Source: a virus (Duplodnaviria; Heunggongvirae; Uroviricota; Caudoviricetes). Taken from it: 7,568 nt of DNA. The notes under the pieces were generated by a model. It worked only from the letters and a program-made list of their open reading frames with translations, ran no database searches and was not told the origin of the DNA. The stretch lies in the IMG/VR virus record IMGVR_UViG_2671181118_000002, one strand, 5' to 3'. The position numbers were made by a program, and so were the translations under genes. This document shows, in pieces, positions 1 through 7,568 of this stretch (within the stretch, counting starts at the first letter, position 1; the number at the start of each line of letters is the position of its first letter).

Positions 1-207
1 CTATGTCCTTGACGTCATAGCCGACTGGCCGATAAACCGGGTCGGCGAACTGCTCCCCTGGCGCGTAGCACTGCCGACTGAATAACACATCCCCGTCAAT
101 ACGGTTCTTGCTGCACGCTTACCGCCATTTCGAACGGCCTCCTGATGTTCTGAGGGTGCAGAAATCCCTCCGGTTAAGGATTAAATTTTTAACAGTGCTA
201 AATTTAA

Positions 208-1087: not shown

Positions 1088-2173
1088 TTACCCCCTGAAG
1101 CCTGGCGGAATTTCGGTATCCGGTTCAGAAACATGATTCACACAACGCTGGTTGTTCGTGCCGCTTACCGGGAGCAACCAGGGGTTTTCAAAATTCCGGT
1201 CCGGTCCAAAAAACGTCGTCGCTCGCTGAACAAATTCCGTTCCCGTTTTCCCGGTAGTCGCCAGGTATCTTGCGTAACGCCTCACGCCATCCAGCATGGC
1301 CTCTGGTGGCACCCCCTCGCGTAATCTGGCCTTCCAGGCACTGAAAGCGGATTTCTTCGGGTTTGCTCCGGCACGCAACGGGTATTCCCGCCAGACCTGT
1401 TCGAACACATCCGGATAATCCACTCGTCCCACAGGCTGCCCGGTGTTTTCCGGGACTACCTGATCGGCTTCCCGCTGAATGGCGGAATCGGCTTCAGGCT
1501 GCTGCAGTTGGTGTGATTGTTCCGGCCTTGCGGTCATCGCCTGCTGCACAGCGCCCGAATCGGCTTCCGGTGTCGTGCCTGCTGGCTGACCAGGATTGAC
1601 GTTCTGAACATCCCCTGCCTGGTTCGTGGCGATTTTTTCGCCATGAAGCATAGTATTTTTATCCTGCTCCTGTTCTTTCTCCTGTTCCTGTTCTTGGCTT
1701 AGAAGCCCCTTTAAAGCCTCTTCGAAGCCCCTTGCTGAATTCCGGCGATTATTCCGCCTCACATCCAGATGGAAATCCGTTTTATATCTGTCGTAAAAGG
1801 CTGACAGAAAGGCGTTTTCAGGTAATGATGCATACTCATTCCTGACACCTGCACAACGGTTATCTCCAGGCTTCAACGTTTCCCCAACCTGCCAGGCTGC
1901 CATTTCATGGACCCAGACCATCTCGGCATCATGGTCATAGCTACAAAAACCAGCTTCAACAGCCCTTTTAAGCCCCTTCGAAGCCCCTTCCGGACCAAGC
2001 CCGGTTTCATGAGCAAGGTACAAAACTGGCAGGTAATACAAACCCAACATATTTGCGTGAGGGGATGTCATCAGGTAAAAAGCAACAACTTGCGCTTCTG
2101 CACCCGCCTTTCTAAGTTCTCTCCCCGTTTCTCCCAGCCAGAATCGCGGGGAAACTTTTGCATAATCACGCAT
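1088..2173 (-). CDS. Putative phage replication-initiation protein (lambda O-like organisation: N-terminal domain, E/Q-rich low-complexity linker, C-terminal domain)
   Basis: Six-frame ORF 1088..2194. Preferred start is ATG at 2171-2173 preceded by GAGGTG; the ORF-track start at 2194 is a TTG. Sits after the cro-like and cII-like genes in the early operon. Contains a QEQEQEKEQEQ linker and iteron-like DNA repeats in the coding sequence. Family assignment is from memory of phage replication proteins and was not verified. Confidence 0.6.
   Translation of the reverse strand: MRDYAKVSPRFWLGETGRELRKAGAEAQVVAFYLMTSPHANMLGLYYLPVLYLAHETGLGPEGASKGLKRAVEAGFCSYDHDAEMVWVHEMAAWQVGETLKPGDNRCAGVRNEYASLPENAFLSAFYDRYKTDFHLDVRRNNRRNSARGFEEALKGLLSQEQEQEKEQEQDKNTMLHGEKIATNQAGDVQNVNPGQPAGTTPEADSGAVQQAMTARPEQSHQLQQPEADSAIQREADQVVPENTGQPVGRVDYPDVFEQVWREYPLRAGANPKKSAFSAWKARLREGVPPEAMLDGVRRYARYLATTGKTGTEFVQRATTFFGPDRNFENPWLLPVSGTNNQRCVNHVSEPDTEIPPGFRG
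1702..1734. repeat. Iteron-like cluster A: three ~11-bp direct repeats (GAAGCCCCTT / AAAGCCTCTT / GAAGCCCCTT) inside the replication gene
   Basis: Read directly: 1702-1711 gaagcccctt, 1713-1722 aaagcctctt, 1724-1733 gaagcccctt. The 11-bp period is not a multiple of 3, so the copies lie in different codon phases. Confidence 0.5.
1961..1990. repeat. Iteron-like cluster B: three tandem ~10-bp copies of AGCCCCTT-type repeat inside the replication gene
   Basis: Read directly: agccctttt (1961-1969), aagcccctt (1970-1978), gaagcccctt (1980-1989). Same motif and orientation as cluster A, about 260 bp away. Confidence 0.5.
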
Positions 2174-2198
2174 GTTCACCTCGTCTGGAGCCAAACCT

Positions 2199-2244
2199 TC
2201 CTCTGGTTATAATCTGTGATTCACTAATCAACAGAACCAGAGGA
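2199..2244 (+). promoter_or_regulatory. Candidate promoter/operator for the 131-aa gene: 10-bp perfect inverted repeat TCCTCTGGTT...AACCAGAGGA overlapping a TATAAT -10 hexamer and the downstream RBS
   Basis: Arms at 2199-2208 and 2235-2244 are exact reverse complements with a 26-bp spacer. TATAAT at 2208-2213. The right arm contains the AGGAGG Shine-Dalgarno of the ORF starting at 2253. No convincing -35 was found. Confidence 0.4.
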
Positions 2245-2252
2245 GGTTCGAA

Positions 2253-2648
2253 ATGGATTTTGCAACTATCACAAGTAGCGTTGTGTTGAGTGCGTGTGTT
2301 GCTGGCGTGGTTTCGCTGGTTAATGGTGCCTGGCAACGCAAATCGGAACGAACCATTGAAGCGCAACGCCGGGCTGCTGAAGCCAGAGCAAAAATAAGAG
2401 AAATGGCTCTCACCCTCGCATTGAAAGAATGGGAGCTCCACCAAACCATATCGAAGGCAAAGGGGTATGGTGTCAGCGGCCCAGAAGTTTACGTCTTTCG
2501 ATACTTTCGTATGCTCAACCTGATGGAGGAAGACAAATTCACGATTGAAAATCTCAGACTGATCCAGTACGACTCCATGTGTGCTGTTGCAGCAATTCAG
2601 GCAGAGATCGAGCGATATCGGGAGAAAAACGGCCTCCCGATGCCATAA
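2253..2648 (+). CDS. Membrane-anchored protein of unknown function (N-terminal hydrophobic helix, then a charged helical domain); encoded antisense to the surrounding early operon
   Basis: Six-frame ORF. ATG at 2253 with AGAGGAGG 6-7 nt upstream. Residues ~5-26 (ITSSVVLSACVAGVVSLVNGAW) are hydrophobic and followed by QRKSER. Not recognised as any family I know. Confidence 0.65.
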   Translation: MDFATITSSVVLSACVAGVVSLVNGAWQRKSERTIEAQRRAAEARAKIREMALTLALKEWELHQTISKAKGYGVSGPEVYVFRYFRMLNLMEEDKFTIENLRLIQYDSMCAVAAIQAEIERYREKNGLPMP

Positions 2649-2652
2649 ACAA

Positions 2653-2882: not shown

Positions 2883-3308
2883 TTAGTGCATCACCACGGC
2901 ATTTCCTGCAGGGCCACCACGGTTCATCTGATTGAAACCGGCAATCGCCACTGCGACAAAATCATCAGCGTCTCTCACCAGTCGTTCCCGCGTCTCCACC
3001 AGCTCCCGAAAATAGGCTGAACTGTGGCTGCGCATTCGGGCCACCAGCAAAGGTGGCATTGCCTTTTCGATCGCTGGTAACAACGCCTGAATTTTTTCAA
3101 CAGCATCAGGGGTGTCTTTCTCTACCCAGCGGAAAATTTTCTGTGTATTGCGAGCCAGGGCTTCCGGATGGCTGTCGTCATACAGTTCAGGAAACGTTAT
3201 ACCCAACTCAAAATAAGCCTGGGTTATTCCAGCTGCTGGAACTTTTTCGCCATCAGGACGCGCCCAGGCATTCATCGCCATGCGGATGTGTTCATGCTTG
3301 ATTTTCAT
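2883..3308 (-). CDS. YdaT-like protein (prophage CII-analog family)
   Basis: Six-frame ORF. ATG at 3306-3308 preceded by AGGAG. Overlaps the end of the upstream cro-like gene by 17 nt. N-terminus MKIKHEHI and the position straight after a YdaS/DicC-like gene match the ydaS-ydaT arrangement of Rac-type prophages (recalled, not searched). Confidence 0.65.
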   Translation of the reverse strand: MKIKHEHIRMAMNAWARPDGEKVPAAGITQAYFELGITFPELYDDSHPEALARNTQKIFRWVEKDTPDAVEKIQALLPAIEKAMPPLLVARMRSHSSAYFRELVETRERLVRDADDFVAVAIAGFNQMNRGGPAGNAVVMH

Positions 3309-3573
3309 GAATCAAGCTCCTAGAAAGTGGTTGTGTTAACGTTTTGGTATCTTCCAGCTCGGGCCAAATATTCATCCAATCAAAAGGCCTTAGTTGCTGA
3401 CGTGTAACTTCACCATTACTGGCTCGCTCAATAAGGACACATAACGATGCCCCTAACACTTGACCTTTACTCAATGCCTTTCTTAGATAACCGATGCTGG
3501 TACCACACTCGCATGCAAACATACGCTGTTCATCTGACGAAAGAGAATTGAGAAATATTCTTAATTCTTCCAT
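3292..3573 (-). CDS. Cro-like HTH regulator of the YdaS/DicC family
   Basis: Six-frame ORF. ATG at 3571-3573 with AAGGAG 6 nt upstream. Divergent from the repressor gene. Contains an HTH-like segment (GTSIGYLRKALSKGQ) and the C-terminal motif GEVTRQQLRPFDWMNIWPEL, which I recall as typical of YdaS/DicC-type proteins. Confidence 0.75.
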   Translation of the reverse strand: MEELRIFLNSLSSDEQRMFACECGTSIGYLRKALSKGQVLGASLCVLIERASNGEVTRQQLRPFDWMNIWPELEDTKTLTQPLSRSLIHENQA

Positions 3574-3598: not shown

Positions 3599-3680
3599 AG
3601 AATACCCACAGGTAAACAAAAGTCAATACCCACAGGTTGTTTACCTTGCAGTAATCGCATCTATTATTTACCTATGGACA
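3599..3680. promoter_or_regulatory. Divergent promoter/operator region between the cro-like and repressor genes, with repeated TACC-N4-GGTA-type operator motifs
   Basis: Direct repeat AATACCCACAGGT at 3601-3613 and 3625-3637. 10-bp inverted repeat AGGTAAACAA (3611-3620) / TTGTTTACCT (3637-3646). Candidate leftward promoter on the minus strand: TTGACT (3621-3626), ~16-bp spacer, TATTCT (3599-3604). Candidate rightward promoter: TTTACC (3640-3645), 16-bp spacer, TATTAT (3662-3667), ending 6 nt before the repressor ATG, which suggests a leaderless mRNA. Confidence 0.5.
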
Positions 3681-4093
3681 AATATGAATTTAGACGACAG
3701 CAACTCATCAAAATTCGTGATGAGAAATGCGATGGTAAAGCGGTTAACGTGGCCAGAAAGATCGGGCGCGAGCCTTCTTATGTATCAAGAATGTTGTACC
3801 CAGAGGGGAAAAAGGGAAAAAAACGGATCGCTGATGATATGGTGGAGATTATCGAAGAGTCCTTTGGGTTACCCCGGGGATGGATGGATGGTATCGTTTC
3901 ATCATCAACGAACACAGCCTCCAGTTATGAAACAAGGGTTCTAACGCCACGACAACGTATTTTTTTAGATCTCTTAGACGAACTGCCAGAAAGTGAAGCG
4001 GATAACTTATTAAAAACTCTTGAAGAGAAAAAACAGTATTACAATATGATCTACGAAGAAATCCGTAAAAAGAAAGCACAAAACGCATCATAG
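3674..4093 (+). CDS. Prophage repressor (CI/DicA-like); the C-terminal region resembles DicA, the N-terminal DNA-binding region does not
   Basis: Six-frame ORF 139 aa, divergent from the cro-like gene. HTH-like segment AVNVARKIGREPSYVSRML. C-terminal LTPRQRIFLDLLDELPESEADNLLKTLEE resembles the DicA C-terminal pattern as I recall it. No Shine-Dalgarno upstream, consistent with a leaderless start. Confidence 0.7.
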   Translation: MDKYEFRRQQLIKIRDEKCDGKAVNVARKIGREPSYVSRMLYPEGKKGKKRIADDMVEIIEESFGLPRGWMDGIVSSSTNTASSYETRVLTPRQRIFLDLLDELPESEADNLLKTLEEKKQYYNMIYEEIRKKKAQNAS

Positions 4094-5232: not shown

Positions 5233-5285
5233 TTTCTGGTGACGTTTGGCGGTATCAGTTTTACTCCGTGGCTGCTCTGCCGCCC
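5233..5285 (+). ncRNA. dicF: DicF small regulatory RNA
   Basis: TTTCTGGTGACGTTTGGCGGTATCAGTTTTACTCCGTGGCTGCTCTGCCGCCC followed by TTTTT matches the DicF sequence as I recall it, possibly with one substitution. Lies between ydfC-like and dicB, as in the Qin prophage. Confidence 0.85.
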
Positions 5286-5929: not shown

Positions 5930-6868
5930 ATGAGTAAAGTCTTTATTTGCGCCGCCATTCCTGACGAACTGGCAACAAGGGAAGAAGGCGCTGTGGCTGT
6001 AGCCACAGCTATTGAAGCTGGCGACGAACGCCGTGCTCGAGCAAAATTTCACTGGCAATTCCTGGAACATTATCCGGCTGCTCAGGACTGCGCTTATAAA
6101 TTTATTATCTGCGAGGATAAACCTGGCATACCCCGCCCTGCCCTCGATTCATGGGATGCTGAATATATGCAGGAAAACCGCTGGGATGAGGATTCTGCTT
6201 CTTTTGTCCCGGTTGAGACTGAATCCGATCTGATGAACGTCACTTTTGACAAGCTGGCCCCTGAAGTACAGAACGCTCTCATGGTTAAGTTCGACACATG
6301 TGAAAACATCACCGTTGATATGGTTATTAGCGCACAGGAATTGTTGCAGGAAGACATGGCAACATTCAACGGACATATCGTTGAAGCGTTGATGAAAATG
6401 CCAGAAGTTAACGCCATGTATCCGGAGCTTAAGCTGCATGCCATCGGGTGGGTTAAGCATAAATGTAAGCCTGGTGCCAAATGGCCCGAAATTCAGGCAG
6501 AGATGCGCATCTGGAAAAAACGTCGCGAAGGTGAACGCAAGGAAACCGGAAAATACACGTCTGTTGTTGATCTCGCCCGCGCCAGAAGGTCATTGCTGCC
6601 ATTCATCGCGAATACAAGCAGACATGGAAAACACTGGATGACGAACTGGCCTACGCTCTCTGGCCTGGTGATGTGGATGCCGGAAACATTGACGGCAGCA
6701 TCCATCGCTGGGCAAAAAATGAAGTTATCGACAACGACCGCGAAGACTGGAAGCGTATCTCGGCATCAATGCGCAAACAGCCTGATGCCCTTCGCTACGA
6801 CCGCCAGACTATTTTTGGCCTTGTCCGTGAACGTCCGATCGACATTCACAAAGACCCTGTGGCACTGA
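5930..6868 (+). CDS. ydfE: YdfE-like prophage protein; only the first ~215 codons look like genuine coding sequence, after which the frame appears shifted (possible pseudogene or fusion)
   Basis: Six-frame ORF. ATG at 5930 with GAGG upstream. Translation is protein-like up to ...VVDLARAR (~6585); the remainder is W/M/H/T-rich and unnatural, while the -1 frame becomes open and protein-like from 6571. Confidence 0.55.
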   Translation: MSKVFICAAIPDELATREEGAVAVATAIEAGDERRARAKFHWQFLEHYPAAQDCAYKFIICEDKPGIPRPALDSWDAEYMQENRWDEDSASFVPVETESDLMNVTFDKLAPEVQNALMVKFDTCENITVDMVISAQELLQEDMATFNGHIVEALMKMPEVNAMYPELKLHAIGWVKHKCKPGAKWPEIQAEMRIWKKRREGERKETGKYTSVVDLARARRSLLPFIANTSRHGKHWMTNWPTLSGLVMWMPETLTAASIAGQKMKLSTTTAKTGSVSRHQCANSLMPFATTARLFLALSVNVRSTFTKTLWH

Positions 6869-7568
6869 ACAAATACATTACTGAATACCTGACTACAAAG
6901 GGCGTGTTTGAAGATGAAGGAAGAAATCAGAGCGCAACTGATACTCTCTCGTCGCCAGTACCAGAAACTGATGCAGTGGAAACGGCAATTCCGGACAACG
7001 AAAAAACCGAATGCAAAGTGGAAGTCGAACCATCTGTAGAGCGTGAGGGGCCGTTCTACTTCCTCTTCACCGACAAGGATAGCGAAAAATACGGTCGCGC
7101 AAACAAACTTTCTGGTCTGGAAAAAGCACTAGCCCTGGGAGCTACGGAAATCACAAAAGAGGAATACTTCGCACGTAAAAACGGCACGTACTCAGGTTCA
7201 CAACAAAATACTGGTGCATCTGACACGACCGCACAACCAGAGCCGGTAAAAGTTACCGCTGACGAAGTAAACAAAATTATGCAGGCAGCCAATATCAGCC
7301 AGCCTGACGCCGATAAGTTGCTTGCTGCATCACGTGGTGAATTTGTTGAAGGGATTAGTGACCCGAATGATCCGAAATGGGTTAAGGGGATCCAGACCCG
7401 CGATTCTGTGAACCAGAACCAGCATGAATCGGAACGGAACTACCAAAAAGCGGAACAAAACAGCACAAATGCGTTACAAAACGAGCCAGAAACGAAACAG
7501 CCTGAACCAGTGGCGCAACAGGAAGTGGAAAAAGTCTGCACCGCCTGCGGTCAGACCGGCGGCGGCAA
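6571..7568 (+). CDS. Long acidic ORF (at least 332 codons, 3' end beyond the window); either the frameshifted continuation of the ydfE-like gene or the N-terminal part of a larger early-region protein
   Basis: Frame with codons starting at 6571, 6574 and so on has no stop through 7568, shows E. coli-like codon use, and has no ATG with a Shine-Dalgarno near its 5' end (first ATG at 6769). Checked by hand codon by codon. Confidence 0.5.

Follow-up and report, generated by a model that had tools for sequence, protein, structure and literature searches.

PD-λ-6 and its surroundings at the cII-like/replication junction of a Rac/Qin-like lambdoid prophage

HK97 gp15, P22 SieA and T4 Imm are inner-membrane proteins that block the entry of DNA, and P22 and λ escape their own SieB system by means of the antisense sas RNA and the small protein Esc, which gives a precedent for self-protection. 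The gene studied here, PD-λ-6, would like SieB be a lysogen-expressed lambdoid membrane protein stopping other lambdoid phages after adsorption. However, it has no sequence or profile similarity to SieB, which is larger, polytopic and encoded in the pL arm, and Esc is an in-frame product of sieB whereas the putative partner gene of PD-λ-6 is convergent. With HK97 gp15 and other single-TM exclusion morons it has in common that it is a small, predicted single-pass inner-membrane moron placed opposite to the lytic genes, and one copy lies in a head-gene operon, but no homology to HK97 gp15 was found and the bulk of PD-λ-6 is predicted to be cytoplasmic. The λ pO/oop unit at the cII-O junction presumably corresponds in position to the element upstream of the gene, for in both cases an antisense promoter located where the replication gene begins is directed into the 3'-terminal part of the gene that occupies the cII position; the difference is that here the candidate promoter would drive protein-coding cargo rather than a 77-nt RNA, and no Rfam match was obtained.

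Hotspots of defence genes in P2 and P4 prophages (Rousset et al. 2022, PMC9122126; Vassallo et al. 2022) resemble our locus in their fixed position, conserved flanks and swappable cargo that includes a validated defence gene. They belong to another phage family and another position, whereas here the cargo is found at the cII-like/replication junction and the cargo genes share the very same promoter, Shine-Dalgarno (SD) sequence and ATG. PD-λ-6 itself (PADLOC PDLC04020) was described as a single 'hypothetical' gene of Escherichia coli UMB6655 that was selected with λvir and shown to protect against it (Vassallo et al. 2022, Nat Microbiol, PMC9519451). According to that article, the gene was validated against λvir under its native promoter on a low-copy vector with adsorption unaffected, the clone carried 257 bp of native DNA upstream and 258 bp downstream, a sub-library read peak pointed at one gene, and the HHpred table gives only TM-type matches, at residues 6-40. 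The article treats one gene, and its accessible part makes no mention of a convergent small ORF, a hairpin or a shared cargo site; in the literature searched, we found no published mechanism for PD-λ-6. The core finding, an anti-lambda defence gene, is already known, the gene being catalogued and validated; what is new here is the cassette, the hairpin and the small putative partner gene, which were previously undescribed.

The plus-strand gene and its protein

The window, namely the whole stretch of 7,568 nt that was analysed, comes from a Rac/Qin-like lambdoid prophage, in which the gene is antisense to the pR-type early operon. The gene is the ORF at 2253-2648 on the plus strand (131 aa, ATG start, from the ORF list), for which RefSeq carries an identical CDS, WP_000344866.1. 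The insertion site is flanked on the left by a DnaD/O-like replication-initiation gene (1088-2173, minus strand; phrog_1701, E = 1e-144; the RefSeq start is equivalent to 2173) and on the right by a YdaT-like gene in the cII position (2883-3308, minus strand; Pfam YdaT_toxin, E = 7e-10; phrog_163, CII-like activator). Between these two the ORF is the sole plus-strand gene, so that its coordinates and the uniqueness claimed for it in a preliminary description of this DNA hold for this interval. Strong purifying selection acts on it, with a dN/dS of 0.03-0.05 against the Citrobacter and Trabulsiella copies at a dS of 1.4-1.9, and it is a real gene; an antisense ORF at 2166-2666 on the minus strand was dropped as a coding candidate, the selection being on the plus frame.

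The protein matches the PADLOC PD-Lambda-6 profile over residues 1-131 on positions 1-131 of 131 (295.6 bits, E = 9.2e-90), a model also matched by all 21 of 21 aligned relatives, and it matches phrog_36733, a family of unknown function, with E = 1.4e-91. The gene length of 396 nt equals that of the reference RRK48647.1 (426209-426605, E. coli UMB6655). Because of the profile match and the gene length, the ORF is almost certainly, as far as sequence comparison can tell, PD-λ-6, which is known from E. coli prophages as a single-gene defence against phages. The likeness extends to the N-terminal TM segment, the want of an informative domain and the origin in an E. coli prophage, and the TM-type matches of the window protein fall at the same residues as in the HHpred table of PMC9519451. 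The earlier suggestion of a lysogen-expressed defence or exclusion moron gains support from this full-length match and from the patchy, mobile distribution described below. As a side observation, the exact protein of the window is common, being indexed in 1979 blocks of the collection.

Regarding the topology, a TM helix is predicted at about residues 5-26 (best 19-residue window 5-23, Kyte-Doolittle 2.02), and the AF2 model is all-helical, with helices at 3-70, 77-92 and 98-125 and a pLDDT of 86; hydropathy and model together confirm the single N-terminal TM helix and helical remainder proposed earlier. There is no K or R on the N-terminal side of the TM helix and there are 8 K/R in residues 27-50, hence by the positive-inside rule about 4 residues are predicted to be periplasmic and the conserved bulk cytoplasmic, that is, a helical domain of about 105 residues would face the cytoplasm. 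The 131-aa protein and the 64-aa product of the neighbouring small gene each have a single hydrophobic segment, and the TM helices of both bear conserved small-residue motifs.

The preliminary description, which had not recognised the protein, proposed profile and structure searches. The former assigned the protein to the validated defence family PD-λ-6, while the latter gave no functional homologue: Foldseek with the AF2 model returned nothing from the PDB (best E = 1.8) and from BFVD only an uncharacterised Ralstonia phage protein. Neither a PDB sequence-profile search nor tblastn against 50,697 phage genomes yielded a match for PD-λ-6, and among PADLOC models the only other match was a chance-level one to HEC-07. 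No functional family was found for the 131-aa protein or the 64/73-aa protein in Pfam, NCBIfam or PHROG, and the known superinfection-exclusion and abortive families (SieB, Rex, Imm, Cor and others) gave no Pfam, NCBIfam or functional PHROG match. Two other assignments were considered and rejected. The secondary literature labels the protein a bacterial lipoprotein, and LSAC at residues 12-15 is lipobox-like, but the n-region 'MD' has no K or R, the hydrophobicity runs past the Cys, and this Cys is unconserved in the family. A holin was suggested by a weak Phage_holin_2_4 match (E = 0.0012) in one family member, but the match is confined to the TM segment, there is one TM helix, and the gene lies in the early region with no adjoining endolysin.

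The element upstream of PD-λ-6

A conserved element at 2186-2252, comprising a promoter-like -10, a composite hairpin and an SD sequence, moves together with the gene among the aligned copies. Its sequence can still be aligned between the copies from E. coli, Citrobacter, Trabulsiella and E. albertii despite saturation of the synonymous sites of the gene, and similarity to other contexts ends left of about 2186. All three signals named in the preliminary description, namely a strong SD, a TATAAT hexamer and a 10-bp perfect inverted repeat, are present at the positions given there. The candidate -10 box TATAAT occupies 2208-2213 on the plus strand, and all ten aligned sequences share its A at position 2 and its T at position 6 (alignment columns 27 and 31). 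The -35 is weak (CTGGAG or TGGAGC) and a consensus scan finds no full sigma-70 promoter; we infer promoter activity of the 2208-2213 site solely from the published clone with its native upstream DNA. The SD sequence GGAGG at 2242-2246 on the plus strand, 6 nt before the ATG and within the 3' hairpin arm, is kept in all occupied sites and in 1 of 2 empty sites, the other empty site (FORC43) having AGGGG.

The arms of the inverted repeat, 2199-2208 (TCCTCTGGTT) and 2235-2244 (AACCAGAGGA), lie 26 nt apart, and the 10-bp palindrome alone is marginal, such a repeat occurring in 98 of 2000 dinucleotide shuffles of 2100-2950. It is the core of a larger, composite stem-loop of 25 bp at 2191-2251, assigned to the minus strand, in which the outer stem has 16 bp and one bulge, the inner stem has 9 bp, and a 5-nt internal loop holds most of the -10 (2208-2212). 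On the minus strand the fold reaches a minimum free energy of -30.4 kcal/mol (z = -5.6), compared with -27.3 (z = -4.8) on the plus strand; the Trabulsiella copy gives -30.7 (z = -4.9) and -19.0 (z = -0.9), in the same order. In the hairpin alignment the share of paired cells is 90.6% for the minus and 83.9% for the plus strand, against 25-53% in slid controls, and 6-7 pairs are changed on both sides among nine distinct sequences. The hairpin pairs better on the minus strand, and since it thus fits the strand opposite to PD-λ-6, the palindrome is probably no simple operator of this gene. What stands of the earlier reading of a palindrome spanning the -10 and the ribosome binding site is therefore its presence, while a simple operator function for it probably does not. 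No U-tract accompanies the hairpin on either strand, and no Rfam family was matched at the gathering threshold or at relaxed E-values.

The convergent small gene and the mobile cassette

Downstream of PD-λ-6 lies a 64-aa membrane-protein gene at 2653-2847 on the minus strand, which starts at GTG 2847 (73 aa if at ATG 2874) and corresponds to the 64-aa RefSeq protein WP_135247427.1. Its stop is 4 nt from the stop of PD-λ-6, and it is co-directional with the prophage early operon. Its SD sequence, GGAGGGGG at 2850-2857 on the minus strand, is 2 nt upstream of the GTG, and its GGAGG core 5 nt upstream; the Citrobacter and Trabulsiella copies begin at the aligned position, and the dN/dS of the small gene is 0.10-0.27. 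The product contains a single TM helix, which carries a GIGGALAG motif, and a C-terminal tail of basic character, and it has no match in Pfam, PHROG or PADLOC. On the plus strand no terminator follows 2648, and the fold at the junction has z about 0 and is unconserved, so that mutual antisense transcription of the two convergent genes is expected.

The small gene adjoins PD-λ-6 in every locus examined and is absent from the sites with alternative cargo and from the empty sites. Its sole trace in 50,697 phage records is a remnant lacking the start, carried by two Stx1 phages; searching for homologues of the Citrobacter small protein gave a single match, and of ten loci that are otherwise identical, only some have the small ORF annotated. 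Frameshifts interrupt the small ORF of E. albertii in L014-L017 (checked by translation) and in L032; PD-λ-6 is intact in L014-L017, but in L032 it is spread over two frames. At a PD-λ-6 homologue of 45% identity, too, a convergent hydrophobic ORF reaches over the 3' end of the gene; single-protein scans of viral and metagenome contigs, made to see whether distant homologues likewise have a convergent small TM gene, found nothing.

Gene, upstream element and small gene very probably form a mobile cassette of about 665 bp, at 2186-2850. The closest phages lack PD-λ-6, their replication gene lying directly against the ydaT-like gene, and only 17 of 5426 complete E. coli genomes have it; the cassette occurs in at least four unrelated prophage positions, and all of its copies conserve both the upstream element and the small ORF. 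It lies between ydaT and the replication gene in the window and in two other loci (L003, L004), between P22_Cro and the early genes in Citrobacter (L011), between the capsid E and FI genes of the late operon in Trabulsiella (L018), and in a decayed prophage at icd in E. albertii (L014). The gene had been proposed as a moron, for which its absence from close relatives, its rarity and its unrelated positions speak, but with no terminator it is not a textbook moron.

The upstream element by itself is much more frequent, occurring in 574 of the 5426 E. coli genomes. In about 570 E. coli genomes the shared promoter, hairpin and ATG are followed by other cargo genes or by no cargo, the cargo behind the shared ATG being the ECs1072 family or an 83-aa ORF, and in empty prophages (L008, L010) an element of 65-90 bp fills the whole gap between ydaT and the replication gene. 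This shared-promoter pattern points to a cargo hotspot. None of the other cargo genes has a PADLOC match. The ECs1072 family is present in most O157:H7 genomes, and ECs1072 is among the genes with significantly changed expression in uninduced O157 Sakai cultures, which speaks for lysogen expression behind this promoter.

Proposed mechanism and alternative explanations

The explanation that we prefer for the locus as a whole, covering identity, anatomy and mechanism, is on balance a fairly probable one, and its mechanistic steps are drawn from protein topology, sequence conservation and the arrangement of the genes. The early operon would be repressed in the lysogen, where PD-λ-6 would be made from its own weak promoter; such expression from its own promoter is likely. 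The protein would insert in the inner membrane N-out/C-in, with the helical domain at the cytoplasmic face, and would stop λ-like phages after adsorption. There, the cytoplasmic domain may sense or bind a conserved partner, and the TM helix may self-associate via an S9-S13-A17-S21-G25 face. Upon induction, transcription of the early operon would run antisense through PD-λ-6 and also express the 64-aa protein, which may neutralise or partner PD-λ-6 and so spare the prophage from itself, though we regard such a role as antidote or partner as rather unlikely. Antisense orientation is in fact common for lysogenic-conversion genes and is no proof of self-protection.

Where the phage would be stopped is the point on which the first alternative differs. 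For the action of PD-λ-6 we tentatively favour a post-entry, membrane-acting mode, though with less than even confidence, and hold a periplasmic block of injection to be less likely. Superinfection exclusion at DNA entry would mean that an inner-membrane PD-λ-6 blocks translocation of the λ genome (e.g. through the ManYZ-dependent route or the tape-measure protein), in which case self-protection is unneeded and the small ORF is a passenger. Its expression antisense to the lytic genes as a small single-TM prophage protein would suit such a role, as would the selection with λvir and the unaffected adsorption in the published assay, and the copy in a late structural operon is by analogy reminiscent of HK97 gp15. 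However, only about 4 residues are predicted in the periplasm and the conserved bulk in the cytoplasm, a dN/dS as low as 0.03-0.05 would suit an intrinsic activity or a conserved host partner more than a phage ligand that evolves fast, and why the small convergent ORF is so strictly inherited with the gene would go without explanation; we consider an entry block doubtful. Another alternative shifts the effector to the neighbour: defence would take both genes or the small gene alone, the 64-aa protein being the effector or an obligatory co-effector and PD-λ-6 a regulator, sensor or antitoxin-like partner. The clone of the article contains the entire 64-aa ORF, and therefore its protective effect may not be that of the 131-aa ORF alone; the small ORF, often missed in automatic annotation, accompanies PD-λ-6 in every copy and almost never occurs without it, has a strong SD of its own and is under purifying selection, and the hydrophobic convergent ORF at the 45%-identical homologue points the same way. 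Yet the clone includes only about 59 bp upstream of the small ORF with no recognisable promoter, the E. albertii copies L014-L017 keep PD-λ-6 intact with a frameshifted small ORF (which is frameshifted in L032 as well), and the sub-library read peak of the article is that of a single gene, all of which make this alternative improbable.

Concerning the upstream element, the hairpin and promoter might belong to the phage, whether as the native regulatory region between the cII-like and replication genes, as an antisense promoter of the oop kind or as a site of mRNA processing; PD-λ-6 would then be one of several cargo genes recombined in behind it, and the palindrome would have no regulatory role on it. 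We regard this as a real possibility, although somewhat short of an even one. The element alone fills the gap in the two empty prophages and precedes unrelated genes in about 570 genomes, the hairpin pairs better on the minus strand, and its position matches, by analogy, that of λ pO/oop. On the other hand, it travels with PD-λ-6 to the Cro-proximal site in Citrobacter and to the capsid-FI site in Trabulsiella, and since these positions are unrelated it behaves as a part of the cassette; phage ownership and the cassette are mutually compatible.

Going further, PD-λ-6 might be read as a convergent two-gene cassette, with the lysogen-expressed 131-aa protein as effector or sensor and the 64-aa protein, read only with the lytic operon, as an antidote or activating partner through TM-TM pairing between the small-residue helices of both. 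The minus-strand, RNase III-like hairpin and antisense transcription would insulate the downstream phage genes, and the promoter-hairpin-ATG module would serve Rac-like prophages in general as a plug-in site for lysogen-expressed cargo, located at their cII-like/replication junction. This extended scheme is in our view unlikely to hold in its entirety. If it is true, a convergent self-antidote in the lytic operon would neatly explain how prophages escape their own defence. The hairpin might have its role in the control of PD-λ-6 or in the protection of the phage operon, and the other cargo genes may possibly be defence genes too.

A validated anti-λ gene inside a Rac/Qin-like early region

The PADLOC profile PD-Lambda-6 covers the 131-aa product of the ORF at 2253-2648 (+) from first residue to last (295.6 bits, E = 9.2e-90) and, as judged by sequence comparison, the ORF is PD-λ-6, a validated anti-λ gene. 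It also matches PHROG 36733, a family of unknown function, and its RefSeq entry (WP_000344866.1) reads "hypothetical protein". PD-λ-6 came from a λvir selection on a fosmid library from 71 E. coli strains, and the tables of that paper give it as one "hypothetical" gene of strain UMB6655 (RRK48647.1) at 426209-426605 (Vassallo et al. 2022, PMC9519451); at 396 nt, that gene and the present ORF are equal in length. According to the same source, the cloned fragment (425952-426863) includes native upstream DNA, all systems of the paper reduce plating of the selecting phage without affecting adsorption, and the HHpred table for PD-λ-6 lists weak TM-type matches only, at residues 6-40 (PMC9519451). 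The preliminary description had proposed a lysogen-expressed defence moron, which was right, given the full-length match to a gene selected with λvir; the core of that finding is already known, the gene being catalogued and validated as PD-λ-6. Later papers label it "lipoprotein-related", a reading we reject: its lipobox-like LSAC has no basic n-region, and the Cys is not conserved across the family.

The window spans the immunity and early region of an E. coli prophage of the lambdoid, Rac/Qin-like type; phages Tritos, Evi and mEp460-like phages are the nearest relatives and match part of it at about 94% identity. Read from right to left, the minus strand encodes a Cro/YdaS-like protein (3292-3573), a YdaT-like protein whose gene occupies the cII position (2883-3308), a small membrane protein (ORF 2653-2874), a DnaD/O-like replication protein (1088-2173) and, beyond the latter, a DUF977 protein (622-1047) and a 137-aa zinc-ribbon protein with a weak TFIIB-type match (208-621). 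The gene map bears out that ORF 2253-2648 is the sole plus-strand gene within this leftward operon. The repressor gene (3674-4093) is on the plus strand, as are DUF1391, ydfC, DicF, dicB and recE to its right. The DicF antisense sRNA at 5234-5285 (+) is full length (Rfam RF00039, 75 bits) and is followed by dicB (end 5648) and a DUF1482/ydfD-like ORF (end 5836), an order which makes the pL arm Qin-like. The recE-like exonuclease VIII gene at 5930-7568 (+) occupies two reading frames with a break at about 6589-6712 when set against the intact gene of strain HY220605, and has probably become a pseudogene here through a frameshift.

With a dN/dS of 0.03-0.05 against the Citrobacter and Trabulsiella copies, at saturated synonymous sites, the ORF is certainly coding by this measure. 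The predicted N-terminal TM helix is there as a single hydrophobic segment (best 19-residue window 5-23, Kyte-Doolittle 2.02), with no K/R before it and eight in the 24 residues after it, so that under the positive-inside rule the remainder of about 105 residues is predicted to be cytoplasmic. That this remainder is helical agrees with an AlphaFold2 model (pLDDT 86) of three helices at residues 3-70, 77-92 and 98-125. Upstream, the described elements are all present, namely the TATAAT hexamer (2208-2213), a strong SD (GGAGG, 2242-2246, 6 nt ahead of the ATG) and the 10-bp perfect inverted repeat (2199-2208 / 2235-2244). The proposed own promoter is a candidate: the hexamer is in place, but a promoter scan calls no sigma-70 promoter there because the -35 is poor. 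A search for a terminator after PD-λ-6 found none.

A rare and mobile two-gene cassette

In every copy of PD-λ-6 the shared homology spans from about 2186 to about 2850 and ends at both limits, and the right part of this cassette is the convergent minus-strand ORF, whose stop codon is 4 nt from that of PD-λ-6. From the RefSeq call and the start of the Citrobacter copy, its start is probably the GTG at 2847, preceded by the ribosome-binding site GGAGGGGG and giving 64 aa (2653-2847). The encoded protein is of the single-TM kind, its helix having an invariant ACGIGG-L-GHF core (in the window GIGGALAG), and ends in a basic tail; the gene is under purifying selection (dN/dS 0.10-0.27). Often overlooked by gene callers, it lies beside PD-λ-6 in all of the roughly 30 loci examined, where it is frameshifted only in a decayed E. 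albertii element; sites with other cargo lack it, and the published PD-λ-6 clone (258 bp downstream) includes the whole of it.

Across all phage records, two Stx1 phages are the only ones with a trace of the small ORF, a remnant without a start. In Escherichia phage SH2026Stx1 (3016-3189 of the locus extracted; same in AU6Stx1) the remnant has 84% amino-acid identity to the 64-aa ORF and lies in the nin region, directly downstream of a hypothetical gene of 590 aa on the plus strand that is unrelated, an arrangement which suggests replacement of the cargo by recombination inside the cassette. A homologue with 45% identity to PD-λ-6, on a short contig (L030, 695-1226), neighbours a gene, with GGGACAT repeats, that resembles one for a terminase small subunit. 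The 3' end of the homologue is overlapped by a convergent ORF whose product is hydrophobic and has a basic tail, and downstream of the homologue there is a perfect palindrome of 12 bp (CTGCGATCTGTC / GACAGATCGCAG).

The region 2150-2900 is present in 17 of 5426 complete E. coli genomes, no PD-λ-6 homologue was found among 50,697 phage records, and only 27 relatives at E ≤ 1e-3 were found among 1.84 billion representative proteins; these are mostly about 100-150 aa, and the 20 that were aligned have a single TM segment each and a length of 109-152 aa. The closest phages have the replication gene directly next to the ydaT-like gene. Elsewhere PD-λ-6 is accompanied by a different repressor, cro and replication module (strain M15), adjoins P22_Cro (Citrobacter telavivensis), lies within the late operon between the major capsid gene and FI (Trabulsiella guamensis), or is carried by a decayed prophage beside icd (E. 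albertii); wherever the context is intact, it runs antisense to the neighbouring lytic genes.

The upstream hairpin and its alternative cargo

By itself the 10-bp inverted repeat is barely beyond chance, appearing in 4.9% of shuffles, and a composite stem-loop of 25 bp (2191-2251) has it as its core. Here a 5-nt internal loop, which contains most of the -10 box (2208-2212), separates a singly bulged outer stem of 16 bp from an inner stem of 9 bp. On either strand the whole folds much more stably than shuffled sequence, the minus strand being consistently the better fold: -30.4 versus -27.3 kcal/mol in the window, and -30.7 (z = -4.9) versus -19.0 (z = -0.9) in Trabulsiella. Across nine distinct sequences pairing is kept in 90.6% (minus strand) and 83.9% (plus strand) of cells, against 25-53% in slid controls, and six to seven pairs have both sides changed, a compensatory signal. 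Neither strand has a U-tract, and a comparison with Rfam gave no match. If TATAAT is a promoter, the plus-strand mRNA would start inside the loop and the stem could not form in it; the stem-loop therefore more likely belongs to the lytic-operon transcript or to plus-strand read-through RNA, and in the latter it would bury the SD of PD-λ-6. The leading idea, which is speculative, is a putative RNase III-type processing or stabiliser site.

The 65-90 bp with hairpin, -10 and SD are present in 574 of 5426 E. coli genomes, and the genes behind them differ between prophages, a pattern that points to a cargo hotspot. A 151-aa gene of the ECs1072 family begins at the same ATG in most O157:H7 genomes and in phage pPE4 (L007 2593-3048; L005 4075-4530, both behind the same promoter, hairpin and SD), and an ETEC strain has an 83-aa ORF at this ATG with a convergent 98-aa ORF (L009 2575-2826 and 2827-3123). 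A PADLOC search of these alternative cargo genes gave no match at a meaningful score, that of the 98-aa ORF to HEC-05 (E = 0.0027, 14.6 bits) being at chance level. ECs1072 is among the genes reported with significant expression change in uninduced O157 Sakai cultures, which lends weak support to promoter activity in lysogens, and the alternative cargo genes are candidate lysogen-expressed factors. At two empty sites (L008 2501-2582; L010 2501-2581) the element is the entire gap between ydaT and the replication gene and no gene follows, with ATA in place of ATG and the ydaT stop about 10 nt further on; they could be oop-like antisense promoters or scars of cargo loss. A promoter that lies antisense where the replication gene begins and is aimed into the gene in the cII position presumably resembles λ pO/oop in its placement. 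The pPE4 record, PP818812.1, was deposited as "Actinobacillus phage vB_Apl-pPE4"; its early region is arranged like that of E. coli Rac-like prophages (ydaT, DicA-like repressor, Kil, exonuclease VIII) and its 77-bp promoter/hairpin element is 87% identical to the window, so its stated host may merit a second look.

A tentative mode of action

PD-λ-6 is predicted to be membrane-anchored with its bulk in the cytoplasm, its sequence is under extreme constraint, and the two convergent genes, which have no terminator, are inherited together. The lysogen would produce the protein from the gene's own weak promoter, and the protein would act on the cytoplasmic side of the inner membrane once the phage has adsorbed. 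We tentatively prefer such a post-entry, membrane-acting mode, itself no better than a plausible guess, to a block of injection, which seems rather unlikely: almost none of PD-λ-6 faces the periplasm, its strong purifying selection suggests a conserved partner or intrinsic activity, and its TM helix has a continuous small-residue face (S9-S13-A17-S21-G25), as is typical of self-associating helices. On induction, early transcription would silence PD-λ-6 by antisense collision and also express the 64-aa protein, which could conceivably, if doubtfully, act as an antidote to PD-λ-6 or as its partner. P22, with its SieB/Esc/sas system, offers a precedent for self-protection of this kind.

The earlier finding is real and was correctly interpreted. 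The remaining interest lies in the mechanism of PD-λ-6, together with its cassette partner, the hairpin and the cargo site, which are, as far as the searched literature shows, undescribed.
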